From Massalongia carnosa (Eukaryota), in contig OZ287074.1 in NCBI GenBank assembly GCA_965645245.1, positions 2,170,001-2,234,000 of the forward strand: a stretch of DNA of 64,000 nt, in the 5' to 3' direction. Of the stretch, positions 2,945 through 38,539 are shown in pieces (within the stretch, counting starts at the first letter, position 1; each line of letters begins with the position of its first letter). The position numbers and the translations under genes were made by a program. The notes under the pieces were generated by a model. The model was not told where the DNA came from, did not search any database, and saw only the letters and a program-made list of their open reading frames with translations.

Positions 2945-5901
2945 TGTGGTGGGGCGACATGTGTCATCTGTGGTCAGGTGACATGGCAGGCCTGTGTGGG
3001 GATAAAACGGGTTTTTTGCTGGCGTTTTCTTCATCATCTCCGGACATCATCTTCTATCACCTACGCTGTCATCATCATCGTCGTGTCACGTAATCATCGA
3101 CACACGTTCATTTCGTGCATCAACTAGTCGTTCAGTCGTTCAGTCGTCGAGTTCTTTTCATGTCTATGCAGTCGTAGGTCCATTCAGACGTTTGTGTGTG
3201 TGTGTGTGTTCACTGCTCAGTTCGCCATCTATCATCACGTACCACCACCTTCCATTAGCACGCACGACTACCCTTCTTCATTGGCGACCACGGTGCGATA
3301 TATGATTGTACTGGTGCAATTGAGCGGTTGAACTGAGCATCAAACGTCGAAAAACCTCCTTGTTTTGCACCTCTGATCACTCTGACTACTCCACCTCCGA
3401 CCGTGCACGACCGAGTCCTTCAGCACCAAATCGAGCAACATGGCCCCCATCAGCTTCTTTACCACCGCTACCGCTTCCGTCACCATCCCAGCACCGACTG
3501 CATGCGTTTTAGACGTACATTCCAGGAACTATCTAATCATTCTATTCACTGCACTGATGGCCATGTCCTCGAGCATTACCTTCTGCATTTGGGCCAATGC
3601 GACCGTGTCCGAGAGTACTAGACCGACCTCACCTACTCCACTACCATCAAAACGAGCACGTCAACGACAGCGACACCATAATCGAGCGAAACGTGGTAGG
3701 CCTACTAAAAGAGCCTCCGTTTCTGCCTCCGAGTCGTCTGAGTCGTCAGAGTCGTTCGAGTCGTCCACTTCCACGTCCACCACTAGTGCACCAACCTCTA
3801 GCACTAGTGCATCTCCATCTACATCTTCATCTTTATCTGCTTCTTCTTCTTCACCCAGCGCACCTATGAGCAAGCGACAGCGACGTCATCTGCCGAGACA
3901 GCGCCGGTCCATCTCCGTGTCGAGGGCATCGTCTGTCAGTTCATCAGCACCGTCAGTGTCATCATCAACTGCCTCGGTTGCATCGACAAGGTCATACATG
4001 AGCATGGAGGAATTGTTTGCGAAATATGGGGCACAAAAGGCCCATGTGGTCCATACAAACTGTCCAGAATCGCTGTCTATTTGTCCAACAGTCGCCGTGT
4101 CACCACCGGTCACTATGTCTGCACCATCTGCACCGTCTGCACCGTTCATGTCTGCACCGTCCACCGCACCAACGTCACCCGTCACCGCTTTTCGTTCTGC
4201 CGTGTCTTCGGCACCTGTCATCACCGCTATCGAGTCAGCTGACACTGAGTCAGCAATTGAGTCATCTACACGTGGGCCGGAAGGGCCAAAATCAGCAATT
4301 TTACGTTCAGCACCTGGTTCTAGCACTGAGCTAGCGCGGGCCGAGGAAAGGCCGACCACTGAGTCCGCTGCGTCTACTGCGTCTACTGTCACTGCGTCTG
4401 CTGACACTGAGTCAGTCATTGAGTCATCAAAAAAGGGGCCGGAAAGGCCAAAATCAACATCATTTCATTCAGCCTCTGAGGTCAATGTGGAGCTAGCTAT
4501 GGCCGGACGCCTTCCGGACGTCAGCTACGTCGAAATTGACGACTATATAGCACCTTCCCGTTCATTATCACCATTGCGTTCAGCATCACCGTCCCCTTCA
4601 GCGTCATCATTCGTTCATTCAGTGGCCTTCGTTTCGTCAAATATCGAAGAATATCTGTCTACTTTGCCTCTCATTCAGTCATCTATCTCCCGTCAGGCAC
4701 TAGGATTTTTATATTTGCAGGCCTCCACCTGGATAGTTCCTATGTGTCGACTGTCCAGTCTTCCCCTTTCGGACGCCCTATGTCAACTAGCAGGTGCTGA
4801 TAACACGAAAATATTGCTGCACACTGTCGTGGGTCGAGAGATTTTGACCGAATTGCTGACGAAAGTGAAAGAAATTGTCGCACGGTCAAGTTCATCTTCA
4901 GCTAGTGCCACCGTGTCAGCCAATCGAGTGAGGTCGTTTCCACCTTCATGTAGGTCAGGGCCATGGCAGTCAGACCGAGCTAGGCACGCACGGGCTAGAC
5001 GTGCAAAACGTACGCGCTGGACACTACCTGCACCTCCGGCTTCATATTGTTCCACTCCATTTGACAGGCCCGGCCTATCTAATCAGTCAGCGTCAGCACC
5101 AGCACCGTCAGCACCTCCGTCGTTATCATCAGCCCTACCAGCTGCACCACCGGTTGATGCCTTGCCATTACCTGAAACGGTCACGTCGTCAACATTTGAG
5201 GCCTATCGGGCGAGCGGTGCGTTCATTCCGCCTCAGGCTAACTCCATGCAGTCGTCCGGATCACCGTCAACAGACCCATCAGTCAGTCAACAACGATTTA
5301 TTCAGTTCGTGTCCACCCCCGAGGGCTGGCAGGCAATAGTGACGATGATGGAGGCTATTCAGCAGCGGATAGGGGTCGATGTGAGTCGTCTTTTTCACAT
5401 GTGAAGTGATCATGTGAGCTGTGATTGGCCCGCAGGGCAGACTAGTGAGGCGGACAGACTAGAGGCGAGGCGAGGGCTCAGAGACGAGTTCTGATTGGTC
5501 AGGAGAGGTGAGCTGGCGAAGTGTTGACAGATGCCAGGGGACGGCATCTTTGGGGTGTGAGGCTATGTGGTGGGGCGACATGTGTCATCTATGGTCAGGT
5601 GACATGGCAGGCCTGTGTGGGGATAAAACGGGTTTTTTGCTGACGTTTTCTTCATCATCTCCGGACATCATCTTCTATCACCTACGCTGTCATCATCATC
5701 GTCGTGTCACGTAATCATCGACACACGTTCATTTCGTGCATCAACTAGTCGTTCAGTCGTTCAGTCGTCGAGTTCTTTTCATGTCTATGCAGTCGTAGGT
5801 CCATTCAGACGTTTGTGTGTGTGTGTGTGTTCACTGCTCAGTTCGCCATCTATCATCACGTACCACCACCTTCCATTAGCACGCACGACTACCCTTCTTC
5901 A
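2945..5901 (+). mobile_element. Non-autonomous LTR element with 336-bp near-identical LTRs (2945-3280, 5566-5901)
   Basis: LTRs TGTGGTGGGG...CTTCTTCA differ at about 2 positions; PBS-like TGGCGACCACGG directly after the 5' LTR; no gag or pol motifs inside. Confidence 0.8.
3440..5404 (+). CDS. Ser/Ala/Pro-rich 654-aa orphan protein carried by the LTR element
   Basis: Uninterrupted 654-codon ORF filling the interior; hydrophobic N-terminal stretch; internal duplicated motif SADTESxIESSxxGPExPKS; no recognisable domain. Confidence 0.5.
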   Translation: MAPISFFTTATASVTIPAPTACVLDVHSRNYLIILFTALMAMSSSITFCIWANATVSESTRPTSPTPLPSKRARQRQRHHNRAKRGRPTKRASVSASESSESSESFESSTSTSTTSAPTSSTSASPSTSSSLSASSSSPSAPMSKRQRRHLPRQRRSISVSRASSVSSSAPSVSSSTASVASTRSYMSMEELFAKYGAQKAHVVHTNCPESLSICPTVAVSPPVTMSAPSAPSAPFMSAPSTAPTSPVTAFRSAVSSAPVITAIESADTESAIESSTRGPEGPKSAILRSAPGSSTELARAEERPTTESAASTASTVTASADTESVIESSKKGPERPKSTSFHSASEVNVELAMAGRLPDVSYVEIDDYIAPSRSLSPLRSASPSPSASSFVHSVAFVSSNIEEYLSTLPLIQSSISRQALGFLYLQASTWIVPMCRLSSLPLSDALCQLAGADNTKILLHTVVGREILTELLTKVKEIVARSSSSSASATVSANRVRSFPPSCRSGPWQSDRARHARARRAKRTRWTLPAPPASYCSTPFDRPGLSNQSASAPAPSAPPSLSSALPAAPPVDALPLPETVTSSTFEAYRASGAFIPPQANSMQSSGSPSTDPSVSQQRFIQFVSTPEGWQAIVTMMEAIQQRIGVDVSRLFHM

Positions 5902-6868: not shown

Positions 6869-8102
6869 ATGTCAATTATGGATAGTTTCGAGACATCACG
6901 AATATTAGGTTCTTCGGCATCTAACTCGGCTCAAAGCAGAGCGGCTATGCAGAACGAGGAAAATCCGGCTCACATCCAAGACACTAGGCAGCGCAAGAAA
7001 GTTCAGAATCGCATAGCCCAGCGAACCTACCGCGAGTCTTTCGAGAAAACGCTCACCTGGGAGGCTTTTAGCTAATTCTGTGTGGCAGGTAAAAGAATCA
7101 AGTCTCGAATGGAAGCGCTGGAACGCTTTCGAGAAGCCTCTACGGCACAAATGTCACCATCGGACATTAGCTCCCCAGAGTTCAACCCTCCAACAGAACC
7201 GGAGAGCCATTCTTTTCAGCCCATGCCCTCTCCGGCCATTTCAACGCCCTCCTCTCTACATCATTCGTACTGCTTACAAGACCAAGGTAATGTTACCAAA
7301 TGCTCTGCTTCGTTGTCGTCTTCGGAGAGAGACGACAGTCTTGCTTCTTCGTTCCAGACACATCCCGAACATATTATCCCTACGGTTACACCATCACTGG
7401 ATACGGCTCTGTCTTTCAAGCCGCAGAACAACCGAACCGATCATGGCTTGTGGAATTTCAGCCAAGCAGTCAACATTGGACTTAATGTGGAAGGCATCAA
7501 TGAGCCGCGAGACGCTGAGTACCACAACCCGCCCGAATGGCCACCCTCAGATCTCATAAAAGAGGTAAGAATGGCTAATACAATCACGACTACGATCCAA
7601 TGCTGCCTGACTCTATATATTGCTCCCAACGTCCTGCGCTAACGTATAACTACTCAAGTTCGCCAGGGATATGTACCTTCCTGACACCCCCCAGATCCAG
7701 GATAGCAAAACCGCTCTGCACATGGCCGCCGAGAAAGGTAAAACGTCGACGGTGCAGCTCCTCCTTAGTCTGCAGCCCGATATTCTGGCACAGGATGGAA
7801 GGGGCCGCACGGCGCTCCATCTCGCCGTGTTCAACCAGCACCAAGATGTCATCCAAGAGCTTGTCAAACGGCCGATCTGTCTGGAGGTCCAAGATCAGGG
7901 CGGGCAAACAGCATTGCATGTCGCGGCTGCCCACGGACACGAACGTGCCGTAGCCTGCCTACTTGCCGCGGGTGCAGATCTCGAATGCAAGGATGCGAGA
8001 GGCCATACTGCCTTTCATCTGGCTGCGGCAAACGGACGGGACAACATTCTCCGATTATTGTTCAATCGAGGAGCTGATATCAATGCCAAGATCAAACTAT
8101 AA
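6869..8102 (+). CDS. bZIP-basic-region plus ankyrin-repeat (bANK, TOXE/Aps2-like) pathway-specific transcription factor; 3 or more exons
   Basis: [27 protein letters not shown] basic region; C-terminal ankyrin repeats ([34 protein letters not shown]); introns 7032-7088 (GC-AG) and about 7565-7694. Confidence 0.85.
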
Positions 8103-8714: not shown

Positions 8715-10849
8715 TCACATCGGAACTGCTGGCGCCATTTTCACACGCTACTCACAATTGGTTAATCGCTCAAAAAGTTCCTTGAAGTACTTACTCGAAG
8801 TCCTAGAGAAGCAATCACTCCCAAAGCTGCGGCTGCATAGACTGGAATGAACCTGTAATGATTCTCGTCAGAGAGGTTGAGTATTTAGTAATTTGAGAGA
8901 TGTGCCTTACACTTTGGAAAGAGATTCCACTATGATTGCGAGCGCTTGGGTCTTTTGATCTTTGCCTAATGTTGAGAGAAAGTCGCCGCTTAATCCTAGT
9001 AAAGCAGCCTGGAGTTCGGCGCGGGGACGATCGACAAGAAGCACTTCGAGTCCACTCAAGGCGCGATTTATGAAAACAGCTCCGGAAATAGAGAGTGCTA
9101 GCGCTACGCTCAGAAGTTGGGCTACGGGGTTTGGGTTAGTATGGATGAGAAGGGCCTTTCGGAAAGAACAAGGGTATTGTGTCGCTTACCAACCATTATG
9201 AAACTCAGACCAAATGTCACCAACTCAGGTCTGGTGAGGGTCTGAATCACCGCGAATGCAGCTTGCATGCCGCAGCCGGACCCAATGCCGAGTAGGACCT
9301 CATATCCATATATAGTACCGGTTGAGGTAGTGGCGTCGATGCGAGCTAAGATTATCAGAATGCGGTTGGATCTGAGGGAACACTGGGACCCACAGAACAA
9401 TACGCCTGCAACTAAAGTCAGGATACTTCCCACTAAGAACCATGGCATGTAGTATCCGCCGTTAGACAATGTTCCACTATTCACAAGGATGAGAAAGGTG
9501 ATGAAGACGATGAGAGGCAGCAGTCTGATTGCAGACTCTAGTGGTGCATCACCACGGGTAAATTGGAAATAAGTTGGAATGAAGTAAATCGGAATGAAGC
9601 CGGCCGAGTTAAAGGTTGCCGTTAAGATGAAGAGGAGAAGAGCTTCTTTGATTTGCAGGAAGGCGACTGGGAACAAGCGAGCCCTCTCACTCGTCAGAAG
9701 GGCGAAATATTGTTGCACCACAAACACCGTGAATAGTACCCCCGAGAGTCCGAAGAGGACGATAATCTGGGCGCTATTCCAGCTGAAAAGGGTACCGCCA
9801 AAATTTATAGCCATAACCAGGCAGACTAGAGATCCTATGCTAAGGACTATGCCAACGCCATCGAGGTTGCGAAGGCGTGAAGGGATGCTTTGAGATTGCT
9901 GAGGCTTGAAACTTGGAATCAGGAACAGATAGACTGGGCTCAAGAGTCCGATGATGCAGAGGTTCACGTAGAAGCCCCAGCGCCATGTGGCCTTCGAGTC
10001 GGCAAAAGCACCTCCAACCACGGGTCCGACAACGTTGCCGATACCGAACGTTAATCCCCTTATCGAGGTCAGCTTCGTATCGGCCGTAAAAGAATGCTTG
10101 TTACTTACACCAGGCCCAGATAAATTGGACGCTCAGTGGAACTTGTGTTGACAGATAACAACGTCATTACCCCGAGGTAGGTCCCGATTCCGCCCACACC
10201 CGCGATAACACGTCCGACAATGAACGCGTTGAGATTGGGCGCAGCGGCGCATAGAGCAGATCCGACCGAGAACGTAACAACGGAACCAATGTAGAGCTTT
10301 TTGGTGTCGAAGAGGGCATACGTACTGCCGAAGGGAAGAACGAAGCTGACCCCCCCGATCATGAAACTGAAAGATGTGTCAACGAGAGTGTCTAAGTTAA
10401 GTTGACAAGGAACACTTACGCGACAGAAAGCCATGGAAGTTTGTCCGCACCGCCGAAATCTCTGACGATGACCTGTACATTGCCTGTCAGATCCTAGGAT
10501 TTGTCTCCTGCTCCTTCTTATGGATAAGGCTCATACCGGAATGACGTCGGCGGTTATGGTGTTGTCGAGGGCGTACAGGAATACGCTGGAGAGGATAGCC
10601 AGCACGGCAAGGATCCACTCAAGTTGTGCATTTCCCATGTCAGTAAAGCAATAAGCGAGGGGAACGAGACGTTTGAGAAAGACGATCGCTCACCCGCTTT
10701 CCCGTAAGTTTTCGGACTAGAGGGCTCACGTGATCCCGAAGAGATTCATGGTCGTGCGGAGGCATACTTTCTTCTCTTTCTTCGTTTGCCTCTTTTTCTT
10801 CTCGAACGGGTGAATCGTTCTCGCGCCGGGTGAGTCTGTGAATCTCCAT
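8715..10849 (-). CDS. MFS drug/toxin efflux pump (DHA2-type, TOXA/AflT-like); multi-exon
   Basis: GSALCAAAPNLNAFIVGRVIAGVGG, GPVVGGAF...WRWGFYVNL and YIPxYFQFxRG-type motifs; many hydrophobic helices; several canonical introns; last exon RVKMAPAVPM*. Confidence 0.9.
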
Positions 10850-11778
10850 GTTGGTTGTAGTAGAACAAGGGGGAGTCCGATCAGTCTTGTAGAGCAAACA
10901 ATCGATGTGAGGAAAGCCGATGAGGCATTTAAGTGATAGCTAGCGGGGGCAAGTGTTGATTGTTGATCATCTATCGGGGCAGGACTAAGGATCCAACCAC
11001 TGTGCGAGTGCTTGTGCGACTGATAGTGCAAACGCGTGATAGTAATGGGATTGAGATTATCAAGCAAATCGCAAATCCATCGAGTCATCCATTAATTCCC
11101 CACCAGCCAAGCTCTACCCTATCGTCTTTCGTACCTTTGGTAACTTAAACCAAAACGCTGTATTATACAATACGGTACGCGCCTCTGCAGCCGAAGGCTG
11201 GGTACGTGTTTTTGGATATTATTAATTCATTTTAAACCCATATTAAACGTTTCGAAAACGTGCTTTTATCGCGCGATGCATACATTCAGATCTTCAACCG
11301 CTACGAGTTCTGTAGTAGACTTGATGAACGAGACCTGTCACCCCCGATGATTTGATGCTATATTACGTGAGAATAATACAGGTTAGGCACGTGTAGACGC
11401 ATGGAGGGTACACGGATATGCAGTGTTGCGCAGGGTCCACGGGTTCGCTGTTACTGTGCTCTGCATGCAGACTTCTATGCTCCCTCTGCTCTCCGTAGGT
11501 AATACAGTGGAGTTGGCAGGCCCGATTGGCCGGGAAAACCAAGGTGCAGTCGGTGATATTAATAGATCTAGGTAAGTGATGCTGGTCTGGGTCGAGACAT
11601 GCCTGATTGATGACCACCGACGAAACTTCAGTCAGATCTTTCATGGAGAGGCAGTTCCAGCCCTTCGGAACGTCATCTATATGATGGACTTTCTGCCTGT
11701 AGAGGACGGACAACAAATTAGAGAACAAAGCAGACCTTTCTTCGGACGTCTGACAGAAGTTGCCCGAGTGCTACCGCG

Positions 11779-13325
11779 ATGACTCAACCAGCAGTCAACA
11801 GCGATGCCGTCGCCCACCATGCTAGCCCCGCATATGTGATTGAGGATCGTCTCTTTGTCAACAACGAGTTCGTGTCCTCCAAATCCGGCCTCAGGCTCGA
11901 TGTCTATAACCCTACGACGGAAAAGGTGTGCGCTTCAGTGTATGAGGCTACCGAGGAGGATGTCGACATAGCAGTCAACGCTGCCAAAGCCGCATTCCCA
12001 GCCTGGTCGAATTTGAATGCCCAGGACAGAGGCCATTACTTGGAAAAATGGGCTGATGCCTTGGAAAGGGCTCTCCCAGAGATGGCGTATCTGGACGCCA
12101 TCAGCATGGGCAAACCTGCATACCCAGATCGTGAGCTGACCTTTCTTTCGGGAAGGACAATGGCAAGGGACACTAACTCACGGTCACAGGACTGGCACCC
12201 ATAATTTTGAACATCGTTCGGTTTTTTGCTGCCAAGGCATTGGACGTGACCGGTGAATCGTCTTTAAACACGGCAAATTTTGTCAACATCAGCATTCGGC
12301 AACCGTATGGGGTATGTGGGGCCATTACTCCTCGGCACGCTCCCGTCGTGGTAATGGCCTACAAAGTTTCGGCTGCTCTGATCACGGGCAACACCCTGGT
12401 CCTGAAATCATCGGAGAAGGCACCTCTCAGTAGCCTCGTGGCCGCCCGTTGTGCAAAGGAGGCAGGTATCCCACCGGGTGTCTTGAACGTCCTCAGTGGC
12501 TCCGGAAAGCCTTGCGGAGAGGCCATTGCAAGACACATGGAAATCCGCAAGCTTTCGTTTACAGGGTCGACGTCGGCAGGACGGGCCGTTCAAAAGGCGG
12601 CGGCCGAATCAAACCTGAAAAATGTGACCCTGGAGTTGGCTGGAAAGAGTCCATTGATCGTTTTCGAGGATGCTGACCTGTCGAAAGCAGTGCCTTCAGC
12701 CTCCATGTCGATTCTGGTAAATTCTGGGCAGATGAGCAATGCCAGCTCGAGGATCTACGTTCACGAGGCAGTTGCCGAGAACTTCATTGAGAGCATGAAG
12801 GTCACGATGACCCTTATGGGGGAGAGCGCGGACCCGTTAGCTGAAGGCACCCGAAGAGGACCGCAGGCAGACAAGGTACATTTTGAGAGGGTCCTATCAT
12901 ATCTGGCGCTGGCGCAGCAGTCTGGCATTCAAGCGCCGCTAGGTGGTGGGCGAGAAGGTTCCGAGGGATATTTTATCGAGCCCACTATTCTCATAGACGT
13001 TCCGGAAGACTCGAAGGTTATGAAGGACGTGATCTTTGGTCCCGTCGTAATCATCAACACCTTCACTGACGAGGATGACGTGATGAAGAGAGCGAATGAT
13101 TCCGAGTATGGATTGTATGCCAGTGTCTTCACGAGGGATATTTCACGTGCTCTATGCACTGCTAAGCGGCTTGAGGCTGGGAGTGTCGGAATTAACTGCA
13201 CAAGCCCAACAATGGCGATGGACATGCCCTTTGGCGGGTGGAAGGGAAGTGGGTCGGGCAGGGAGTTTAGCAGGTACGCGACTGACTACTGGACCGAGCT
13301 GAAGTCGGTGTACATCGCGTTGTAA
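11779..13325 (+). CDS. Aldehyde-dehydrogenase-fold protein with substituted catalytic residues; one intron at about 12131-12189
   Basis: LFVNNEFV, LKSSEKAPLS, SFTGST, LELAGKSP, FIEPTI and PFGGWKGSGSGRE motifs; but PWN>PRH, GQxC>GQMS and EEIFGP>DVIFGP. Confidence 0.9.
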
Positions 13326-13976
13326 TGGTCGACCAGAACTGCTCAAAAAGCAGCAGTGTCAGCTGGCCTAGTCCTGTGTTTTAAGTATTGCACAGACCGA
13401 TTGGTTTGATCTCCAATCGAAGCTTCCATTCTGAGCCACAACTTCTAGAAGGCCTTCAACGTGGATGAGGTGAAAGTCATGAGTTTGCCCATAGCCGATA
13501 CTCAGTTTAACACTCAGCGACTTAGCTCCGGCAGTGACCCCTATGCTAAAATTTGGGTCATCTGATGCAGTAAAAGTCCCTCTCATCGGTAACATGGCTG
13601 GTAGGTAATCATGCATATCAAATTTCACGTCATCATCAATTCACTTTGTCTGTCATTTAAACCTGCACTGTTCTGTAACTACAATGCATACTGATATGAT
13701 TGTTGTATTAATGGCTATAGCTTCAGTAATTATCTATGTGGGCTATCTATCTGCTTTTATAGCAGTCACATAGCAGCCACATAATAGTGATGGTGTAGGC
13801 CTCTCATAGCTACCTATTAGGCACTTTTATAGGTTGCTTGACAGGCACCCGAGGGACTCACGAAGGATGCCTTTACTGGTGATCGACTGACCATCTAACA
13901 AGGTTCTTAGCACCAGTCATGTCAACAATGACGTTGAGGTGATGACGCCAACCACAGAGACTTTAGGGGTCATGGA

Positions 13977-15141
13977 TTAGTCGAGTAGCCTCGGAGTCAT
14001 GAGATTTTTCAGGTAATCGTCCGCAATCTGGACTCGATTCCCCTGGAATCTGACAACATGCTCTTGAATGGCATCCGTGAGGATGGTTTTGAGATCTTCT
14101 GTAGTTAGCTCCTTGGCTTGAAAGCCGCGTTCAATATCCTGAAGTGCTTGATCATTTTCCACGAAAAAACGCAGGTATTGGAGCATTAGGGTTATGTCCA
14201 TTCCCATACCCAGGTGGGTTGGGAAAGCAAGCTGAAGCTTAACGCGAATCGTCGATGGATCGTCTGTCAGGAAGATGGCCGAATCGTGGATTGAAGCCGA
14301 CATTTTCGACTGAGCACCTTGGAGTGCGGGTAGGAGGCTCGAATACAAAAACGCCGGCTTATGGTACCCCAATTTTTCTGCGTGTTTGCGAACTTCGCTG
14401 AAGTATCCGTCGATGTCGTATGAGCAAGCAATCAAGCAAGACATTGATTTTAATTGATGCTGGCTCGTTCCGAGGATTCCGGGGAAAGATGTGGCGAACG
14501 CGCCCGCAGATTGAGTCGAACAACAGTAAAACTTCCCGACATTATCATCGTCGTCGAAGTCGAGCGTGTTCTTGATGTTCTTTATCGAAATGTGTCTCGC
14601 TATACCAACGATATTTTCGTAAAAGGCACCCCCGACGAAGTCGAGATTTGAGAAGATGAAGGTTTTCTTGGGATTGAAGCCAAATGCGAGAATGTCTTTT
14701 GCGTTATCTATGTCAAAGCGTCTGACGTCTTGAAATGTGAGATCTTTGGAATGAAGCAGTTTCATGTCATCAGTGAGCATGATAATAAGAGGAGCCTGGA
14801 ACACATCTTGCAGCCATCTAAGATGCGTCAACAGGTGATATGGACAGTCAGTCGAGTCTGACGTAGGCTTACTTGGTAAATTCGAATGGAATGGAGTGTC
14901 CAATGTGCAGACTGTCGCTGCTTGGACCCCTTCCAGTGAACAGATAAAACGGCAGTCCACGCTCATACTTGTCTAGAATGCCATCCAAGCCGTGGTGGCA
15001 GAAGACTATGCCTCTTCGCAGGTACCTATGAGGTATATGACCCGTCACTCTTTCAAAGCGTTTGAGTATCTTTGTGTCGATATGACTTGCATCGGTCTCG
15101 CGGATGAATTCGTTCAAATTGTCCTCTGTAACGGTATTCAT
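13977..15141 (-). CDS. Divergent cytosolic-type tryptophanyl-tRNA synthetase paralog (exons 15141-14873 and 14817-13977)
   Basis: LRRGIVFCH, FYLFTGRGPSSDSLHIGHSIPFEFTK|WLQDVF, NAKDILAFGF..KTFIFS, PALQGAQSKMSAS, AIFLTD and MTPRLL motifs; GT-AG intron 14818-14872 restores FTKWLQ. Confidence 0.92.
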
Positions 15142-16972: not shown

Positions 16973-19900
16973 GCATAGACACGAAAGGTGGCCTCCCCTA
17001 TAGCGATGGCACGATTCACTGGAACCGGGATTGAACTCCCAACCCGACGAGAATCGATGATCCCGACGACCCAAGAGACAGATGACGAATTGGAGGTAAT
17101 TGAACCTCTGATGATCGAGAACTTTCGACAACTGAAGGCATGGATGAAGCACGATGGCCAGGCTGTGTCCGAAATGCTTCAGGAACTGAAGAAAGCCTAT
17201 AACGACTCCATCGACAGAAGCAATCTCGCCACTGACATGGCCGAAAGCTTCCAGAAAAGAATGAATCAGCTAGAAGGAATTGTCGAATACCAAAGGAAGA
17301 ACCGAGGGAAGCACGTCGCCACGCTTCCGCAACACCAACCAACAAGACTCGGGAACGGTCGCGCCCTCACTCTCCTTCTCGGACACCAAGCACCCAACGG
17401 ACCGACGGCACTATCGACAAGAAGAAGTCCATGAAACTTCCTGACCCTCCCATTTTTACTGATGGAAAGGAGAATTCCATTGACCGTTGGCTGACAAAGA
17501 TGCGCAGCAAATTAGCGGCCAACGAGGACCACATGCCAACAGAAGTGCTTAAGAAGGCGTACGTGGAGAACCGAGTCGGAGGAGAAGCCCTGGGGCACCT
17601 GGAACCCCGACTCCGAAAAGGTGCAATTCGCCCCTTTGTGACGGCCGAAGAAATGTTCGACCAATTGGAACAAACCTACGGCAACCCTAATCGAAAAAAA
17701 AAACGCCATAAACAGCCTCCGAGCCCTCAAGTAAGGAAGCAAGGACTTTAACACCTTTTGGGCTAAGTTCCAGCGCCTAGCAGCTGAGTTGGAGCATAAC
17801 GAGGCCACGCTAATCAGCGAGTTGAAGTACAAGCTTTCCTGGGAAATGTCACGACAATTGGCCACCGGCGACCAGGCACCAACCGACCTCTACGCGTTTG
17901 CGCAAAAGTGCCAACGCTTATACCAGGGCCTCAAGGACTCAGACCGGAGTAAGGCTAGTACGGAACGTTATGCTGAAAGACTTTCTAGCACGGCTCCGAC
18001 CCCCAGCGCCACGGCCACGAAAACAACGAACTTCCACCAAGACCTACGTACCACCTCGACCCATCACCAGCACTCCGACCACTAGAACCACCTCTTACAT
18101 GACGGAGGAGGAGAAGGAACGACTGACTAGAGAAGGTCGTTGTTTCTTTTGCTAAGAAACTGGACATATATCGAGGGACTGCGAAAATAAGGCTCGGCCA
18201 GCGAAAGTACAAGAAATCGCTGAGGTTGCCGACTCGAGAAAAGAATGACCTCCACCAAAGGCGCGGATGGAGGTGAACCTTTGTTGATTTCATCTAGCTG
18301 TTTACCAGGCGATTTATTTACGGATGAACCTCTAGTCATACAGTGTAGGCTAGGTGACAGCGAAGAAATGAAAGTAATGGGACTGTTGGACACTGGTGCT
18401 ACAGGACATGCTTGTGAAAAGCTTCAAATTTCCCCTCAGAAACTGACACGACCGAAACCGGTGAAAGGCTTTGATGGTAAACGGGGTAAAGACATCACTT
18501 ATGCCATCTACCCCACCCTCACCGTACAAGACCACAAAGAGACGGTGGCGCCTCTTCTGATCACCACTCTAGGCCAACATAAGATGATCCTGGGCAAACC
18601 ATGGATGAGGAAACATGGAGTAGTTATCGACATGGCCCTGGACAAGATAATCTTCTGGTCTGGCCCGGCCACTGTTCCCATCCAGGCGCACCCATACCAC
18701 TTCAGAAGTTAGAAACGACGAAGACCCCGAAGACTACAGAACCCAGAAAGGTCATGATATTGACACGGACCCAAGAAGAAAAGACTGAACAGAAAGAACC
18801 GGAAAAGATCAAACCAGAACCGTCCATGCAGTCGAATGTGGTAGCTGACAAGGCTGATGTTAGACTATCAGAAGGACTAACAGACTTACCATCTACGGAA
18901 ACCGTGGATGGATATTCAACCGAAGATAAGCCGACTACCGAAGATAAGCCGACTTCCGAAGATAAGCCGATAGAGATGGCCATGATAGGGGCTGCTGCGT
19001 ATCGACTGCTCTCCAGACGAAAGGACGTCGAATTATTCTCCATTTCCTTGAAAGACATCGAGTATCAGCTCAACAAAGAAGACCGCCCACCGACTGACCC
19101 GAAGGCGGTAGTTCCCCCGGAATATCACGAGTTTCTGGACGTCTTTTCCAAGGCTGCATCGGACGCGCTGGCACCTCATCGACCATATGACCACCGAATT
19201 ATTCTGGAAGGAAGGAAAGATCACGGGCATAGCCCACTTAGGAGTATGTTGCAAAGAGAGCTCGAATTCGTCAAGAAATACCTCGAGGACAACCTTCGAA
19301 AGGGGTTTATCGAGGCTAGTCACGCTGCTTGCTCGTCCCCGATTCTTCTAGCCAGGAAGCCCAATGGAGGACTTCGCTTTTGTGTCGATTATCGACGGTT
19401 GAACCAGTTGTCAAAGAAAGACCGCTATCCGATCCCTCTGATAGAAGAAACGTTGGCATAGCTGAAATAGGCCAAGATCTTTTCGAAAATCGACATCCGA
19501 CAAGCGTTGCACAAACTCCGGATTGCTATGGAATCTGAAGACTTGACCACGTTCAACTCCCGTTTCGGTGCCCATAAATACAAGGTATTACCGTTTGGAC
19601 TTTCCGGAGGACCATCGACCTGGCAGCACTTTATCAACGACATGCTGTTTGATATTTGGACAAGTTCTGCACGGCTTATCTGGACGACATCCTAATTTAT
19701 AGCAAGAATCTGAAAGAGCATCGGGAACATGTACGTGCCGTTCTATCAAAACTTCGAGAGGCAGGACTCCAAGCGGACGTAGACAAATGCGAGTTTCACG
19801 TGACGGAAACGAAATATCTGGGACTGATTATTGGTGTTGATGGCATTCGTATGGACCCCGCCAAAGTCAAGGCCATTCAGGAATGGCAAATTCCAGCCTG

Positions 19901-21240
19901 CCTACGGGAGGTCCGTTTGTTCATTGGCTTCTGCAATATTTATCGCCGATTTATTAGAGGATTTTCAAAGATTGCTAAACCGCTGAATGCGTTGACAAAG
20001 AAAGAACGAATATTCGAATGGACCTCGGCATGTGAAAAAGCTTTCCGAACTCTACAGAAGCAAATTGGGGAAGCCCCGATTCTGATTCATTTCGACCGAA
20101 ACAAGCAGTGCTATCTGGAAACTGACTCTTCGGATCATGTCAATGGAGGAGTGCTATCACAAGAAGGTGACGATGGAGAGCTTCACCCGGTAGCCTTCTT
20201 TTCCAAGAACATGAGCCCGGCTAAATGTAACTACGAAATATATGACAAGGAATTACTAGCGATAATTCGCTGCTTCGAGCAATGGAAACCAGAACTGGAA
20301 AGTACGGACTTGCCAGTGAAGATCTTCACCGATCACCGAAGTCTAGAATATTTCATGTCAACTAAGAAACTAACTAGACGACAAGCTCGCTGGGCAGAGT
20401 TCCTTTCGGAATTCAACTTCGTCATTACATATCAACCCGGAAAGAAGAATGAGAAAGCGGACGCCCTGACCCGAAGGCCAGGACGATGATGACGGAAGGC
20501 AGCAACATCAGCTGCAGACACTGTTAACCCCTGAAAGATTTGAACTCCAATCAATCGAAGAAGCAACGGAACCAGAAAAAATTCCCGAACAGGACCCACC
20601 GACCCTGGACGAAAGAATAAAACTGGAAAACCTGAAGGATGAACATTGTACCAGAATCAGAAAAGCCATAGAAAGAACACCACCGACGACTCGTTACCCG
20701 ACATAAAGAATTGCATTGTGGAAAACGGACTGCTATATAAACAAAAGCGCTTATTTCTTCAGATGACGTTGTTTAAATATATCTAATCTTTAACAATAAT
20801 ATTTCGTCGTATCTATGATAAAATAAAACATGACATAACGTATGAGATAGAATCTAAGATGAGTGATTCGAGTACGAACCGCTCATGTTGTTATAATAAA
20901 TCATTGACTGAAACTAAATTTGTTTGATTTGATTAATCGCGCGGGAGAATAAACACGAGCATACGCAGTAGAGTTGCAGCTAGTAAAGTGATCAACAATA
21001 ATTGATTGATCATTTTCTCTGGTTCATAAGTTGATTCAATCGTTGTTGTTTCAAGTTTCCAGTCTGTGCGTATCGATAATTGCAAAAACTCGAATGAAAA
21101 AGCAGCTCAATTAATAAGATAAACGACAACGAAGTCCTTCCCAATAGGTTAAGTTTCTTGTTTCCATCCTTACCCTTTCCCTTCCTGACCTTCTCTTCCT
21201 CTTTTCAGTTTGTCATTTTCACTCGGTTTGTGCTCGATCT

Positions 21241-22971
21241 TTACTTTACCAACACTCGGACGCCCAACGTGCCTGGCTTCGGGGACGGGACGAACCTATC
21301 CCGGTAACAGTCCACCGCGTCCCTCGTCGTCTCGAATAGCTCGAAGTCGCACCGGCGGAATACGGTCGCTAGGGCGATGTATATCTCCGCATAAGCGAGT
21401 TTCATGCCGAGGCAAGTCCGTGTGCCTTTTCCGAAACTGACCATGTAGCGAGACAAGTACTTGCCGTCGGGCGCTTTGGGAGCGTCAAGCCACCGCTCCG
21501 GGCGGAAGGTGAAGCTGTCTGGGAAGATATTTTCATCGTGCGAGACGGAGAAGTTGGACATGGAGATAACGGTGCCAGGGGGAAGCGCGTATGATTTATA
21601 CATGATGGTTTGCGTCTCGGAGGTGCGAGGGGTGCGTTGGGCGGTACCATAGGACAAGCGGAGGGCTAGAGGAGGGAGAGAGTGGTTAGCGACTTGAATT
21701 CGTGGGGTTCAGGGATGAGAAAGCGAGAACGCACCTTCTTCGATGCAGGCGCTCAGGTAAGGCAGTTTCTCGTACACTTCGAGAGGTGGTAGCGATTCGG
21801 GATTGGGTATAGCCGAGATGAGTTCTTCGCGAAGGCGGGCTAGAATGGCGGGATTGTCAAGGATATGGAAGCTTGCGACGCTTAAAGCGCGTTTGGTTGT
21901 TTCTATGCCGGCGCCTATCAGGCTAATTGCTTCATGTTGGAGACGAGTCAGGGAGAGCTCTTCTGGCTGCAAATCCGAATCTAGAAGCGAGGCGAAAACC
22001 GTTTTGCTAGACTTTTCAGCGTTGTCGACTTTTCGGTTACTCAGAATGGCTGAGATTTGGCTACTCATCTCCTTCCGGACATGTCAGTCCATGACGTCTT
22101 GGGAGGTCAACAACATACTGACATTATTGAAAGTAATGACCGATGCCGTGTCTGGCTGTAGGATCATGACCATCCAATCAGGGAGGGAATTGACAATGGA
22201 TAAGATCCATGGAAATTGAGTGACCAGATGAACACTATTCGCAAGGCCATTCATCGCGTCAAGGAAAAACGCTCGGAAATCGGGTAATTCGGTAAAGTGA
22301 TATGCTCGGTCGAAGCAATACTCGACGATCGTGTCGGATGTGAGGCATCCCCACATATCATCCATGACTAGAAATCGGTTGGAATTTGCATATTCCCTTT
22401 GCAGACGATCACAAAGCTTATTCACGCGGTTCTGAATGACTGGCGAATGCAGGGCAATCTTGCGGGTCGAGAAAAATGGATTCAACGCAGCTCGTCGAAT
22501 CCGATGAGTCTCGTGCTTAGGTGTTGCAAAACTCGCTTTGGGACTGCTGAACCGATTTTCCAGGCGCTTCAGTTTGTCTAATTTTTGCGAGGAGGAATAG
22601 AGCGTGTGAAAGAAATCTGAATCCTGAATATGCACTTCGTCGGGACTGATCCGAACGATAGGACCTTTGGAATGTCAGTCCATTCTCAATCTCAATGTCA
22701 CGCAAGCCTGCATACCATATTGCTCATGCCATTTTCGATATTGCCATATGAATTGCCCGCCTTCTCCATGACCGATCTCATAGTAGGTTTCCGTCCATCG
22801 CGTCAAGGCCGCCAGCTTTGGGCCGGGGATCTTGGCTAGAGGACTCCAGTACAGTCGATAGAAAGCAAGCAACGCCCAGTAAAGTGCTATCGCAATTGCA
22901 GAGCCCGCGGCAATCAAGGAAAGACGCGTAGAAGAGGCAAGTCTATCCTCAAAAAGTTGAACAATTGCCAT
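21241..22971 (-). CDS. Cytochrome P450 (trichodiene-oxygenase/CYP58-like clan); 4 exons
   Basis: N-terminal TM helix plus PLAKIPGPKLAA; GPIVRISPDEVHI; I-helix GAGIETT; ExxR; FRPERW; heme motif FGKGTRTCLG; canonical introns. Confidence 0.93.
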
Positions 22972-23600
22972 CTTTAGCGAGTCTTGGTTGTGATCTGGTC
23001 TTAGAAGGATACAATGGGAGATGGCTGAGGTGTTAAAATGGAAAGATCGGATTGTCACATCAAGTGCTTTCCAACAAAGAAATGAAACCCGAGGGGAATT
23101 CAAGATGATTCATCGTGAGGAAAGTAACACAGAAGCATATTGCGGGGCGATATCACCCTTTTACCTTGCCCCTAATTTCTACTACAGTACCTTCCTCTAC
23201 CTTCCCCTAAACTTCACCACCTTCCGACCCTCCAAGCTTCCACGCTTCCTACCTACCAACATCCATCCCCCCATTACTCAGACGATAAAGAACATAGAAT
23301 TACATTACGTGTACTGTACCTGTTAGATAAGGTAACGTACGATATATCCATGGATTTGATTCGGATCGGCTCTTATAAGGCCGGACGATGTACGGAGACA
23401 TGAGAGTAAAATGAGTCAAACAGGCAACTTGCGGAACGGTGAGCGTCTGATTTGATCAGGTTTTATCCCCTAATGTAATCATAATATGTTAACAATGAGG
23501 TGATGATAAATTGAGGATGAGATACTATTACGTGATTGAATCGTTTGAGATTATCGCATGAGTGTTTTCTCGCGTATTCCTTGCATGATGTATGCGATAG

Positions 23601-24903
23601 CACACGGGGACCAAAAAAGTTGCGACACCAAAATTTTCACCCCACCAAACTCCTATCAAAACATCGATTTATTTACATCAGAAACTGCTACTAATGACCT
23701 GCCATTCTTCCATCACCGTCTAAAACGTCCTCTAGTCGTTGGGGCATACCTAATACCAAAGAATTAATGAATTCCTGAGAAACACGATCCCTCCAGCCCG
23801 TTTGAATGGCCTCAATCATACTATTATCATCCCAATGATCTGATTTTGACAGCCATTGTTTTACTGGCTGCCAGCAGTTCTCAATGACGGACAAATCAGG
23901 AGATTTGGGAGCATTGAAGTAGTACTTTAGCCCATATTCTTCCTTCCATTTTCGTACGATGTTGTTGTTGTTTGCAGAACCGTGACCTGAATCACCATCT
24001 TCTTCCAAAACAAATCGTTCACCGGCCTCGAGACATGGCTTAATAACAGGCTCCAAAATAGAGTCAATATAGACTCGTTGACTCATTTTCCCATTGTTAT
24101 TTCCTAAAACCTCGTAAAAGTACAAATCGGACTTGTAATTCCACCCGACCTTAGCCCAACAATGATAAACGTTTTTGCACTGATTCTGAGGTTTCTTTTC
24201 CTTCCTGCATACAATCAAAGCAGTATCTTTCACCCGGACGACGTATGATTCGTAATTGACGTTGAGGTCCCTGTCCAAAATGCACTTCATCACTGAAGCG
24301 TACCAGCTTCCAGTCCTCGAGAGTGTACTTGCATTTCATTTCTCTGGCAAATGTACGTCGTTTGGCACGTATATTCGGAGATAGCCATGTTCTCGTGCAT
24401 GCTAAACATTTGTGATACTCCAAGTCCTGCATAGCTCTTCGAACGGTATGCTAATGTACGTGATTTGCCCCTATGAGACCCACTTCCGCAGCTAATTCAT
24501 GCCACGTTTTAGCTCGTGCTTGTATGCCTCCATTTTCTATGATCTCCTGCATCTTTTGAGTGTACTCAGCTGCTATGAGTTTCTTTCTTCCTCGCGTTTC
24601 CGGCCTGTTTGGATTGTTATGAAGACGTCAGAAGAACTATCTTTGAGCATTGCCCATCCCCTGCTCCGTTCCACTCCAAAATTACGAAAAACGTCGCTTT
24701 TGAAATAGAATATGCCATGCGCGTTGTTAAATTCGCTCACAGCTTGTACTTTGGCTTTAGTAGGTGTAGAGTATTCATGTTGAAAATCATGAGACTCTAA
24801 CTGAGGTGTTTGTTGACGTTGCATGATGATTGAATTGTTTGATGATAAATGAGTTTTGGTGGGGTGAAAATTTTGGTGTCGCAACTTTTTTGGTCCCCGC
24901 GTG
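23601..24903 (-). mobile_element. Tc1/mariner-like DNA transposon with ~47-bp TIRs; transposase pseudogene at about 24824-23691
   Basis: TIR CACRCGGGGACCAAAAAAGTTGCGACACCAAAATTTTCACCCCACC at both ends; FSDEVHF, EDGDSGH and SPDLSVIENCW motifs; flanked by GATAG on both sides. Confidence 0.9.
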
Positions 24904-25141
24904 GATAGTCAGTCGACTGCAAAAGGTTGGTCGCGACCCTGAATTTGGGACCACACATCAAATATTTATGCGAAAATGGCAAAATGCCGGCAAAAATCTG
25001 AAAACTACCCTCACCGCCTACATGCCAATGAAGTCGTACTACTGGTCAGTATTGAAGCGACTTGTAGATTAGTATATGTAGATGCCATTCCCCGTCTTTT
25101 TTCCCTCCCCCCTCTGCCATTCCCCATTTTTTATCTCAGAT

Positions 25142-27289
25142 ATGAAACTTCGTGAACCGAGAGCAAAAAGATCAAATTCCGGCCCCCCCCCGGCTGGAAA
25201 AGAGCCTTTCAAAGGTAAGAGAATCAAAGTGACTTTGGGAGGGCCGAGAGCCAGAGCCATTGTCGCCGCCGGCATCGATGAAGCCTCGCCGGAATCGACG
25301 TCGGCCCCTCCCAAGCCAAAGCCTCCCCTCAAGTCAAAGCCCCCCTTCAAGCCAAAGGCCCCCCTCAAGCCAAAGGCCCCTCCCAAGCCAAAGGTCTCTC
25401 CCAAGCCAAAGGCCCCTCCCAAGTCAAAGGTCCCGCCTCAGCAGTCAAAGACTTTCGAATCGAATTATTATAGTCCCCTTGTCATTACGGAGGATTCCTC
25501 CGACGACTGGACGGATGAAGACGAGAAGCAGAGGTGGCAGGGTCAGTGGAGAAAGGAGAACGCGATGAAAGCTGTAGATGCCGAAGATGATGCCGAAGAT
25601 GATTCCGAAGATGATGCCGAAGATGATGTCGAAGATCTCAATGTGCCTAGTAACTCGATTGTCAGTAAGAAGTCTAGAAAACCAAGAAGAAAGGAACCCT
25701 CCCGTTTATCCCCTTCGCCACTGCCTCCGACGGTAATCAAATATCTACTAAATGTGAAGATGTCGTATGAGAAGCACGTCGTTTTCGAGACGGTGATTCC
25801 ATACGAAGTCAATTCAACTACGTCGAAAAGATTCTTTTTGAGAAGCTACACCGGGGCCATGAGTTTGAAAGCCGAGACGTATGCGAATTCCAAAATGTAT
25901 GCTTGTCATTTGGTCGAATCAAAGCGACCGTGTTATGGAATTGAATCAAACCGCATGAAAAATCAGCTCTCATGTTGATCGAATCCTGGCAGCCCATTGA
26001 GGAGGTTCTAATTCATTTAGAAGACAGCAGCATTCGAAAGAAAAGCTTCGCGGTTGATCTTATTTTCAACTTCAGTCGTACCAAAGATGGCGTCATTCCT
26101 CCCGATGATCCTATTGCTGCTGCCACAGCTGTCGCCACCAAGAAATTGGGAACCGCGACCATGAAGCTGCAAAAAGAGATGGAGGAACGAGCCATGTTGC
26201 AAGGCATGACGGCCGAAAGAATGTCCGAATTGCAAAGTCTGCATCTCTGTGAAAAACGCGCATGTAGGAATTTCGGACAGTACTGTTGGAATGATGAGAC
26301 GAAGAATCAGCATTATCCTCTCAACAGTGCTCATTTCGTGACCTGGAATAAAGCACTAGATGATGGAATTTCAGGCGTTGATTCTCGAACACCTCCACCG
26401 AAGATCAGAGAGACTTTATTCTCCCTGAATAAAGGTAAGAAAAAAGACTGAATCATCATCTCCAAAATAGGAAACCTCGTCTCAGGAAATGCTCTTTGGA
26501 GGTGGGCATTCCATTTATCAACATCCCATGTATCAACACCACTCGTACCTAAACCCCCACTCGACATTTCCCCCCTCGTCATTTCCCTCGGCATTCCCCT
26601 CGGCATTTCCTCAATCGGCATTTCCTCCCTCGGCATTTTATCCTTCTCAGTATGCTCCTTCTACATTACCTGACTCGAGACGAGCCCGTGAGGAAACGCC
26701 GTTGGATTGGAGAGATTCGAGATCATCCAGAAGCAGTCGAAGCGTGAGTCGATTTCTCCCTCTCCCCTCCGTCGCCCGCAGCAGTCCAGTGGAAGAAGAT
26801 CTGGAAGACTATGTCAGTTGGCTCGTTCAAATGAAGCCTCATTTGAAAGGAGTGCTCACCAACGCCTGCGATCGATTGATGGAAGGTGTATACGATCTGA
26901 TGACCGTTCAATCCTTGAAAGGCATCGAGTATCAGACGTTCTGGCAGGAACTAGGAATTCCTCCGGGAATCGGGATTCAACTGGCGCGAGACGTCAGTAA
27001 ATTTGGAAGAGAAATATCTCGGCAAATGCCTTTGCAAATGTCTCGACAAATGTCTCGACAGATATGTCAGCAAATGCCCCCGCCTCCCCCTCGGCGTCAA
27101 CGCCATTTACCGACATCGCAAATGGCCACTCAGGCGGTCACTCAGGCGGTCACTCGGGTGGATAAGGGGATGGAGGATGGGGAGGTGGACGGGGGCGGGG
27201 AGGTAGGATCTGGAGTGAGAGATACAATTGAGGAAGATGAGACGCATAGTCTAGAATACGATTATGCCGAAGATGAAGATGAGGATTAG
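25142..27289 (+). pseudogene. Transposon passenger gene of unknown function (Pro/Lys-rich repeats, acidic tract, Cys/His motif), disrupted
   Basis: Three consecutive ORFs (25082-25978, 25972-26451, 26489-27289); (KPKAPP)n; CEKRACRNFGQYCW...HYPL motif. Confidence 0.55.
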
Positions 27290-27304
27290 ATACTATGTAT
27301 CTAA

Positions 27305-28349
27305 TCAGATTGAAATGGTTGGATACTGAATGCCAGCCAATCTAAATAAATTTCCCGGGTCTCCCATTCTCAGATCTTTGACTGCATCCCGAAGAAATTG
27401 TCCGAATCCCCCATACTCCTCCGTGTACGAAAGACTCATTTCTCCATTCCGTCGAATCCATGCCTTTAGCAATGCAAACGACGTTTCAATTGGATTGAAA
27501 TCTGGAGAATAAGGAGGTAGTCGTGCCAAGGTGACGTTGGCTGTCTCGCACATCTGAATAAGCTCCTGATTCCAATGAATGCTGGCATTATCTAGTACTA
27601 AAACAGATCTAGGACCTCCATTGGCAGTCGTCTGAGGAAGAACCTGATTTCGAACGAAGTCGTTGAAAATTTCGGCAGTTATGGAGCCCTGATGCACCTC
27701 CCAAGCTATATATCCATCGACGGTAAATGCAGGAAGAATGCTCCATCTCTTTGACCTTTTCAAATCCTGAATCATGATTGGAGGGACGCCTGCCTGAGCC
27801 CATCCGTATCGTCGGTCACCTAGTCAGAAAGTCAGAAAAATGACGAAGATGGGATGAAAGATGAGATAGGAAATAACCGGTTCTTTCGCAAGCTGCACTT
27901 TCGTCCAAAAAGATCAATTGCTCTGCAGTCCATTCTCCGAGTCTCTGCATCCATCCATCTCGAAGGCCTTGATTTCTTTGAGCTGCTTGTTTGATCACCT
28001 TCTTTCGATTCCAACCAAGCCTTTTTAGGGCACGACCAACGGTGGTCTCATCTGCAGATATCTGAAATTCGTCCCAAATGAACCAGCACATTTCATCCAG
28101 ATAGGCATGCGGACGTTGCTCCAGATATTTCAGAAGTTCAATCTCATGAAATTGACTGAGTTTACGAGGGCGATGTCCAATTGACAATTGAGGTAGAACC
28201 ACATCTCCAAAATGAGTCCAATTACGTCTCATTCGTTGAATCTGTCTGATGCCAACACCAGTGACAGATGCAATTGTCTTATTGCTGTCACCTCGTACAA
28301 AACGAAGCGTGATTGTCTCACGAAGGGTCTCACTGAGAGGGGGGGGCAT
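27305..28349 (-). pseudogene. DDE transposase (DDE_3/IS630-like) with one intron and a 1-bp frameshift near 27780
   Basis: N-terminal HTH; FLDES, LDNASIH and PPYSPDFNPIE motifs. Confidence 0.85.
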
Positions 28350-38500: not shown

Positions 38501-38539
38501 ATGAATAGTAAAACTCACGTGTAGGTATAATAGCATGAT

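Follow-up and report, generated by a model that had tools for sequence, protein, structure and literature searches.

Several aminoacyl-tRNA synthetases have given rise to ligases that work outside translation, among them MshC (derived from CysRS), GluQ-RS/YadB (GluRS), the amino acid:carrier-protein ligases (SerRS) and PoxA/EpmA (LysRS). These ligases keep the synthetase core and its ATP motifs, have lost or changed anticodon binding, and have taken on a new acceptor or substrate; they are bacterial or archaeal and descend from synthetases other than the tryptophanyl enzyme (TrpRS). In Streptomyces, an indolmycin-resistant second TrpRS gene is tied to secondary metabolism and to an exporter, and its product remains a working TrpRS. 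Among eukaryotes, a TrpRS homologue of Entamoeba histolytica (PDB 3HZR) is a paralog with a non-canonical role that reportedly retains its tRNA-recognition domain but no longer has the class I active-site motifs. Here we describe a family with the opposite pattern, represented by a TrpRS-like gene (13977..15141, minus strand) in a 64,000-nucleotide stretch of Massalongia carnosa DNA (assembly GCA_965645245.1, contig OZ287074.1, positions 2,170,001 to 2,234,000; hereafter the window). Unlike the known synthetase-derived ligases, its product is eukaryotic, derived from TrpRS and retains a shortened C-terminal domain; unlike the Streptomyces resistance enzymes, it has lost the residues that read Trp and tRNA-Trp. 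Judged by its sequence, the protein is a paralog of cytoplasmic-type TrpRS, a conserved extra copy, and the explanation that we favour, with about an even chance of being right, is a neofunctionalised adenylate-forming enzyme that acts on a new substrate as part of a small exported-metabolite module of the secondary-metabolism type. Synthetase paralogs that have taken up chemistry outside translation are already known as a general kind. The eukaryotic, TrpRS-derived form, partnered by a bANK-type transcription factor and a transporter of the major facilitator superfamily (MFS), appears to be undescribed; a full-text literature search found no account of a fungal TrpRS paralog family, and the main text of a survey of fungal isocyanide clusters contains none of the terms 'tRNA', 'ankyrin' and 'PF00579' (PMC10153163).

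The gene consists of two exons with an intact frame encoding 369 residues. Exon 1 (14873..15141, minus strand) encodes residues Met1–Thr89 together with two bases of the Lys90 codon and contains Phe68, at the human Tyr159 position within YLFTGRG, and the HIGH motif (His79–His82, codons 14907-14896). Exon 2 with the stop codon (13977..14817, minus strand) contains TDDMK (14774-14760), CCSTQSAG with the counterpart of human Gln284 retained, YDIDG of SYDIDGYF (14420-14406), KMSAS (14306-14292) and, at the site of the shortened anticodon loop, AFPTHLGMG (14228-14202). Between them lies a 55-nt phase 2 intron (14818..14872, minus strand; GTAAGC...TAG, GT..AG) that splits the Lys codon between FEFT and WLQDVF, and the spliced exons read FEFTKWLQDVF, a stretch found in all relatives; the intron occupies the same position in the orthologues at two metagenomic loci, L001 and L002. 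A first-pass annotation of the window had quoted HIGH (within SLHIGHS), KMSAS, YLFTGRG, TDDMK, SYDIDGYF, CSTQSAGA (within CCSTQSAGA) and FPTHLGMG (within AFPTHLGMG), each of which is present, and the interval that it gave for the gene spans exactly start to stop codon; it made no mention of the intron. The protein matched Pfam tRNA-synt_1b (E 2e-9), and a phmmer search of PDB sequences with exon 2 aligned it end to end with yeast TrpRS (E 1e-64) and human TrpRS (E ~1e-60), the sole sizeable gap being ~10 residues in the C-terminal domain. The class I Rossmann fold, HIGH, KMSAS and overall homology expected of a canonical TrpRS were all found, and a look-up in the ESM Atlas returned generic TrpRS clusters only. 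Contigs from two sequencing runs were identical to the window wherever they overlapped it, yielding no variants, no splice evidence and no close orthologue from which dN/dS could be computed. The 5' flank of the gene is AT-rich (GC 0.34). Just 3' of the stop codon, a short dispersed repeat (13727-13808) had a summed contig depth of ~79,000, compared with ~800 in the adjoining bins, and many loose contig ends on both sides.

Compared with canonical eukaryotic TrpRS (yeast Wrs1, PDB 3KT0/3KT3; human WARS1, PDB 2QUH/2AKE), the paralog has the same fold and the same HIGH, KMSAS, GRGPSS, Lys200, Gln284 and Asp312 elements. It differs in its amino-acid pocket and in the faster evolution of its C-terminal domain, and several parts are missing: the N-terminal hairpin, Asp99 and Lys102, the C-terminal tail, and the anticodon loop together with helix alpha11. 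It is also a patchily distributed accessory gene, which in two Metarhizium strains coexists with the canonical enzyme. Residues are numbered here as in human TrpRS. In that enzyme, the indole NH is bound by Tyr159 and Gln194 and the carboxylate by Lys200, while Glu199 and Gln284 contact the alpha-amino group directly and Gln313 and Tyr316 reach it via water; Gln313 also binds the ribose 3'-OH of ATP (PMC2275098). The yeast counterparts are described as Tyr106 and Glu141 for the indole NH, Glu146 and Gln230 for the alpha-amino group and Lys147 for the carboxylate (PMC2879500). The window protein has Phe68 in place of Tyr159, Met108 in place of Glu199, Tyr223 in place of Ile311 and Ile225 in place of Gln313. 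It keeps Lys109 (Lys200), Gln192 (Gln284) and Asp224 (Asp312), as well as Tyr316; the complete Trp-recognition set of canonical enzymes (Tyr159/194; Glu199, Gln284, Gln313 and Tyr316; Lys200) is not present.

These substitutions are shared by the family. We aligned 23 paralog rows (10 full-length and 13 partial, from 35 relatives) with 14 canonical rows and counted residues by column. At the Glu199 position, Met occupied all 23 paralog rows and Glu all 14 canonical rows, and at the Gln313 position, invariably Gln in the 14 canonical rows, the paralogs had Ile (21), Val (1) or Thr (1). The Ile311 column held Tyr in 16 paralogs and Trp in 7, the Pro315 column Gly in 23 of 23, and the Phe280 column Cys in 22 and Ser in 1; other switches fixed in the paralogs replaced Phe267 and Phe339 by Leu, Leu334 by Phe and His336 by Tyr. 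Tyr159, counted in the 10 full-length relatives, was replaced by Phe in 8 and by Lys in 2. HIGH, KMSAS, GRGPSS, Lys200, Gln284 and Asp312 were retained across all paralog rows examined. The Gln194 position was considered as a further part of the rewiring and rejected, because Met occurs there in 9 of the 14 canonical rows, those of Aspergillus and Penicillium TrpRS among them. A proposed conversion of the canonical PAIQAAPS segment to CSTQSAGA held only in part: only the paralogs have Cys for Phe280, Tyr for the adjoining His and Ser for the adjoining Ala, whereas the rest is ordinary fungal sequence (FHFCATQSA in Aspergillus) and Gln284 is kept.

The elements that read tRNA-Trp have been lost or are no longer constrained. 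In the human complex, the anticodon is wrapped by the alpha10–alpha11 loop and the inserted helix alpha11 (Ser378, Gly380, Arg381, Asp382, Ile384 and His387), Thr427, Gly428 and Lys431 add to this contact, and Asp99, Lys102 and Arg106 in helix alpha1' recognize A73 (PMC1538984). Both the loop and helix alpha11 were deleted in 23 of 23 paralog rows, the window protein having the short AFPTHLGMG instead; the anticodon-domain deletion reported in the first-pass annotation is thus shared by all aligned paralogs. The columns of Ser378, Thr427, Gly428, Asp99 and Lys102 varied among paralogs, those of Asn261 and Arg326 were not conserved, and the C-terminal tail of canonical TrpRS is missing. The N terminus is also truncated. 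The beta-hairpin formed by residues 82-92, with Pro87 and Trp88, covers the adenylate, and amino acid activation was not measurable for human T2-TrpRS, which lacks it (PMC1538984); Val85 of the hairpin packs on Ile311, and mutants there activate in a tRNA-dependent manner (PMC2034488). The window protein starts ~12 residues ahead of its helix alpha1' equivalent and has no hairpin, nor do any of the 10 full-length relatives. A tblastn search of the window with canonical TrpRS aligned only from canonical residue 49 and found no upstream exon coding for the hairpin; the first-pass annotation had also noted a missing N-terminal extension. The roles that it ascribed to Tyr159, Glu199, Gln313 and the anticodon segment are likewise those described in PMC2275098, PMC2879500 and PMC1538984. 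Neither the hairpin (Pro87, Trp88) nor the readers of tRNA-Trp identity that characterize a canonical TrpRS were found.

A word-indexed search gathered the window's product with 35 database proteins at 53-76% identity, followed by canonical WRS1 proteins at no more than 47%. Named members come from Dothideomycetes (Lepidopterella, Cucurbitaria, Clohesyomyces, two species of Aureobasidium and Pseudocercospora), Sordariomycetes (two species of Metarhizium) and Eurotiomycetes (Aspergillus heteromorphus and A. ellipticus); the derived residue states are common to all of them across these three fungal classes, and the databases label them 'tryptophanyl-tRNA synthetase'. This patchy distribution is that of an accessory gene. 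In a maximum-likelihood tree from a quick search (24 rows each of paralogs, the window copy among them, and of canonical enzymes, with 12 paralog rows and most canonical matches omitted), all 24 paralogs lay on one side of a branch with an SH-aLRT of 100 and a stem of 1.09 substitutions per site. The branch was nested inside Pezizomycotina TrpRS, after Lipomyces and chytrids, and on this placement the family is the product of a duplication of Pezizomycotina cytoplasmic TrpRS. Metarhizium guizhouense ARSEF 977 and M. album ARSEF 1941 encode a canonical TrpRS of 491 aa or 488 aa in addition to a 402-aa paralog; tblastn with canonical TrpRS found no second TrpRS within the 64-kb window.

An exhaustive profile search reduced the TDDMK family at 50% clustering to a handful of representatives and revealed a divergent group (P0244, P0263 and P0274) in which TDDSK replaces TDDMK and TD(I/V)DP(Y/F)F replaces (Y/W)DIDGYF. 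Its members also lack the hairpin and have a shortened anticodon loop. The group joined the TDDMK clade with an SH-aLRT of 99, a join to be taken cautiously as both lie on long branches, and such a sister group would be as expected of a diversifying enzyme family. Examined for gene-fusion partners, the same profile search gave P0243, a tandem canonical TrpRS, and P0140, a canonical TrpRS with an unrelated N terminus.

The family is under purifying selection, and the remodelling is family-wide. Between the L001 and L002 orthologues (89.7% DNA identity), dS over 366 codons was 0.34 and dN 0.034, giving a dN/dS of 0.10, with 0.044 over the first 270 codons and 0.33 over the last 96. The same division appeared in mean pairwise identity, which in the catalytic part was 72% among paralogs and 71% among canonical TrpRS, and in the C-terminal helical domain 41% versus 62%. 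The window copy deviated at 2 of 108 columns with at least 90% conservation, in a family range of 0-8. An AlphaFold2 model of the orthologue P0025 (pLDDT 87, pTM 0.88) matched human and yeast TrpRS with TM-scores of 0.90-0.91 at ~40-42% identity and retained the C-terminal helical domain; the Entamoeba protein 3HZR was a structural match at rank 44 (TM-score 0.84, 25% identity). A distinct conserved clade and a structural overlay on the human and yeast enzymes had been proposed as checks in the first-pass annotation: the paralogs are monophyletic with shared substitutions and constrained codons, and the model superimposes closely. The annotation's further proposal of an adenylate-forming ligase for a non-Trp acid, perhaps one without an alpha-amino group, would follow from the ATP motifs kept and the one negative charge lost from the pocket. 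Its view that the gene is unlikely to encode a translation enzyme or a simple resistant copy is supported, and such a role made very unlikely, by this shared and constrained remodelling, the loss or relaxation of the tRNA-Trp identity readers, the absent hairpin, the uniform Glu199-to-Met change and the coexistence with canonical TrpRS in the two Metarhizium strains. A catalytic core and ATP motifs under selection, combined with lost anticodon recognition, are the combination seen in the non-translational ligases derived from other synthetases.

Gene clusters controlled by bANK factors provide a second point of comparison. This class of pathway regulators, which includes ToxE, Aps2 and Apf2, combines an N-terminal basic region with C-terminal ankyrin repeats, which are protein-binding modules, and the HC-toxin (ToxE) and apicidin (Aps2/Apf2) clusters described with them contain an MFS transporter and centre on four-module NRPS (non-ribosomal peptide synthetase) genes (PMC4109984). 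In the window, a gene at 6869..8102 (plus strand; exons 6869-7031, 7089-7564 and 7659-8102) encodes a bANK-type factor of ~360 aa. Its bZIP-like basic region is N-terminal and its ankyrin repeats (Pfam ankyrin, E 3e-30) are C-terminal, the domain arrangement that defines the class; no Pfam bZIP match was found in this product at E up to 0.001, and no leucine zipper was called. The first intron of the window gene (7032-7088, plus strand; GCGAGT...CAG) begins with a GC donor, and the L001 orthologue uses GT at this phase 1 position instead. An MFS transporter gene follows at approximately 8792..10690 (minus strand; several exons; Pfam MFS_1), and between it and the TrpRS-like gene lies an aldehyde dehydrogenase gene (11722..13325, plus strand; Pfam Aldedh, E 9e-121). 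A counterpart of the latter was not found in L001, leaving it as a neighbour in the window outside the conserved module.

A metagenome scan yielded two further loci with the gene, L001 and L002. The order of genes on L001 (17.5 kb) is SDR, bANK factor, TrpRS-like protein, MFS transporter, GMC oxidoreductase, DAO-type oxidase and the first part of an isocyanide synthase of the DIT1_PvcA type. Reciprocal tblastn between the window and L001 identified exactly three genes in common, encoding the bANK factor (64% identity), the MFS transporter (67%) and the TrpRS-like protein (58%), although their order differs: the TrpRS–MFS segment is inverted and the aldehyde dehydrogenase gene inserted. This conserved linkage, which the first-pass annotation had not noticed, is the strongest clue to function. 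The bANK and TrpRS-like genes are also adjacent in P0124, a 551-aa GenBank model from Aureobasidium melanogenum annotated as 'tryptophanyl-tRNA synthetase, partial', which was the sole paralog match in the search for longer, fused proteins and is a chimera of a bANK N terminus with its first ankyrin repeats joined to a TrpRS-like protein.

The isocyanide synthase at the end of L001 (16860-17464, plus strand) is of the DIT1_PvcA type. Only its start (MPAFPCKS, an intron, then NKVLGHLPDLGEELALRRLN...) falls within the locus, at a distance of 9 kb from the TrpRS-like gene, and the MFS, GMC oxidoreductase and DAO-type oxidase genes lie in the interval. No isocyanide synthase was found among the scanned window open reading frames (ORFs), nor by tblastn of the window with L001 ORFs, in which the synthase is represented by its N-terminal part only. 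With no window counterpart, a link to isocyanide chemistry was set aside and kept as a special case of low probability.

On the explanation that we favour, a descendant of fungal cytoplasmic TrpRS would have become an accessory enzyme outside translation. Because the class I Rossmann core and the residues for ATP and the carboxylate are retained, an acyl-adenylate is most likely still made, by way of HIGH, KMSAS, GRGPSS, Asp312, Lys200 and Gln284. The rebuilt pocket (positions 199, 313, 311, 159 and 280) lacks the negative charge and hydrogen bonds that serve the alpha-ammonium group and the indole NH. The sole acidic residue facing the amine has become Met (in the TDDSK group, Ser), so that the substrate probably lacks a cationic alpha-amine; a hydrophobic or aromatic acid whose alpha position bears no free amine (des-amino, keto, hydroxy or N-modified) would suit such a pocket. 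The protein probably does not charge tRNA-Trp, and the loss of the elements that read this tRNA suggests that the acyl group would pass to some other acceptor. Co-inheritance of the gene with a bANK factor and an MFS exporter suggests, in turn, that the product of the module would be exported. A more specific proposal, which we put forward tentatively and with distinctly less confidence, is that the TDDMK and TDDSK proteins are unrecognised stand-alone 'core' enzymes of minimal fungal clusters comprising the enzyme, a bANK regulator and an MFS exporter, which would adenylate an aromatic acid without a free alpha-amine and ligate it, free of tRNA, to a small-molecule acceptor to form an exported metabolite. 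Candidate acids would include indole- or aryl-keto, -hydroxy and -acetic acids supplied by neighbouring oxidoreductases; for the Aureobasidium-like locus, the isocyanide synthase nearby might supply one with an alpha-isocyano or N-formyl group.

Several observations weigh against an adenylate-forming enzyme within a metabolite module. Linkage to the bANK and MFS genes has been seen in two independent lineages only, because L001, L002 and P0124 belong to one Aureobasidium-like lineage. Unlike the known bANK clusters, the locus has no classical core: Pfam detected no NRPS, PKS (polyketide synthase), terpene synthase or isocyanide synthase among 88 scanned ORFs of the 64-kb window, and the 20 L001 ORFs scanned contained none apart from the isocyanide synthase 9 kb off. 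Nor is the regulatory signature of those clusters evident around the TrpRS-like gene. Six intergenic regions from the window and L001 shared no promoter words beyond shuffled expectation; the Tox-box ATCTCNCGNA gave 0 matches against 2.5 expected; and the Api-box TGACGTGA gave 4 against 1.8 expected, a count reached in 11 of 100 shuffles, with none in the relevant promoters. A P450 gene near the TrpRS-like gene (21241-23109, minus strand) is a pseudogene of four same-frame ORFs parted by single stops. The chemistry itself is one that we infer from the residues, and loss of the hairpin and Gln313 may mean that adenylate formation is impaired or needs a partner. Finally, contact with RNA or phosphate may be retained in part: Arg321 is invariant among paralogs, and 17 of 23 rows have a basic residue in the Lys431 column (Arg in 14, Lys in 3, others in the remaining 6).

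Some of these points lend themselves to other explanations. The scarcity of biosynthetic genes would fit a non-catalytic or semi-catalytic sensor, decoy or co-regulator that binds ATP and a small ligand, such as a xenobiotic or a Trp-like toxin, and together with the bANK factor switches on the MFS pump, forming a response or resistance module in which no compound is made. Only a regulator and a pump are conserved alongside the gene, with no tailoring or core enzyme; the ankyrin repeats could mediate contact between the proteins, as such repeats are binding modules (PMC4109984); and the missing hairpin and Gln313 may weaken catalysis. Synthetase-derived regulators do exist, in HisZ and the HisRS-like domain of Gcn2. 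We nevertheless consider a sensor unlikely, since all rows retain HIGH, KMSAS, Asp312, Lys200 and GRGPSS, constraint on the catalytic half is very strong (dN/dS 0.044; mean identity 72%, as in canonical TrpRS) and exceeds what ligand binding alone usually requires, and the divergence between TDDMK and TDDSK pockets is of the kind seen in enzymes with different substrates. The possible residual RNA contacts could instead point to an enzyme that selects a tRNA by its acceptor end, or another RNA, and acylates it with a non-canonical acid to feed a tRNA-dependent enzyme encoded elsewhere. In its favour, the modelled fold retains the C-terminal helical domain, the invariant Arg321 contacts the acceptor-stem backbone, Lys264 hardly varies, most rows (17 of 23) are basic in the Lys431 column, and human mutants of the hairpin and Ile311 become dependent on tRNA for activation (PMC2034488). 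We regard RNA acylation as quite improbable, as the Asp99 and Lys102 columns of the A73 reader and those of Asn261 and Arg326 are not conserved, the anticodon loop is deleted and the C-terminal domain is relaxed (dN/dS 0.33; 41% versus 62% identity). No tRNA gene was present in the window or in L001, and scans of their ORFs revealed no recognisable tRNA-dependent transferase nearby.

A pump and a regulator would also suit a resistance cassette, in which the paralog would serve as a TrpRS for self-resistance or back-up, still charging tRNA-Trp but insensitive to a TrpRS inhibitor, with export and regulation provided by the neighbouring pump and transcription factor. Synthetase paralogs in or near bacterial biosynthetic clusters are a known means of resistance, as for indolmycin, mupirocin and borrelidin, and our literature search returned bacterial cases only. 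Known resistant copies keep substrate and tRNA recognition, whereas Glu199, Gln313, Tyr159, the hairpin, the A73 readers and the anticodon loop have been lost throughout this family. These losses strike residues whose mutation cripples the human enzyme (PMC1538984), and the scanned ORFs of the window include no core biosynthetic enzyme against whose product a resistant synthetase would protect, making this explanation very doubtful. It is barely credible that the gene is a decaying duplicate without function. The transposon-rich surroundings, the P450 pseudogene and the AT-rich 5' flank would suit decay, but the frame is intact, the intron is conserved, only 2 of the 108 conserved columns deviate, orthologues differ with a dN/dS of 0.10 and in all three fungal classes the derived residues have become fixed.

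Most known cases of synthetases giving rise to enzymes with new chemistry are bacterial. The present family would be a conserved eukaryotic one, derived from TrpRS, in which the pocket has been remodelled in an orderly, fixed manner and tRNA reading lost. If a neofunctionalised ligase is indeed the catalytic heart of the three-gene module, the window would represent a type of fungal biosynthetic locus that genome mining has missed, because its key gene is annotated as 'tryptophanyl-tRNA synthetase'. For the same reason, caution is warranted in annotation: TrpRS-like genes of this kind should not be counted as translation factors or resistance markers. The family is small and easily expressed and occurs in tractable fungi (Aureobasidium and Aspergillus section Nigri), which makes its chemistry directly testable.

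The remainder of the window is rich in mobile elements, which occupy 17000-20500, 23700-28400, 33200-46500 and 53400-62600 and include Ty3/gypsy and Ty1/copia reverse transcriptases, Tc1/mariner DDE transposases and a LINE-like ORF with endonuclease and reverse transcriptase. A 672-codon open frame at 3386-5404 (plus strand) encodes a Ser/Ala/Pro-rich low-complexity protein without a Pfam match, and an NLR-like gene at 49551-53322 (minus strand) combines a patatin-like phospholipase with NB-ARC and a long TPR array.

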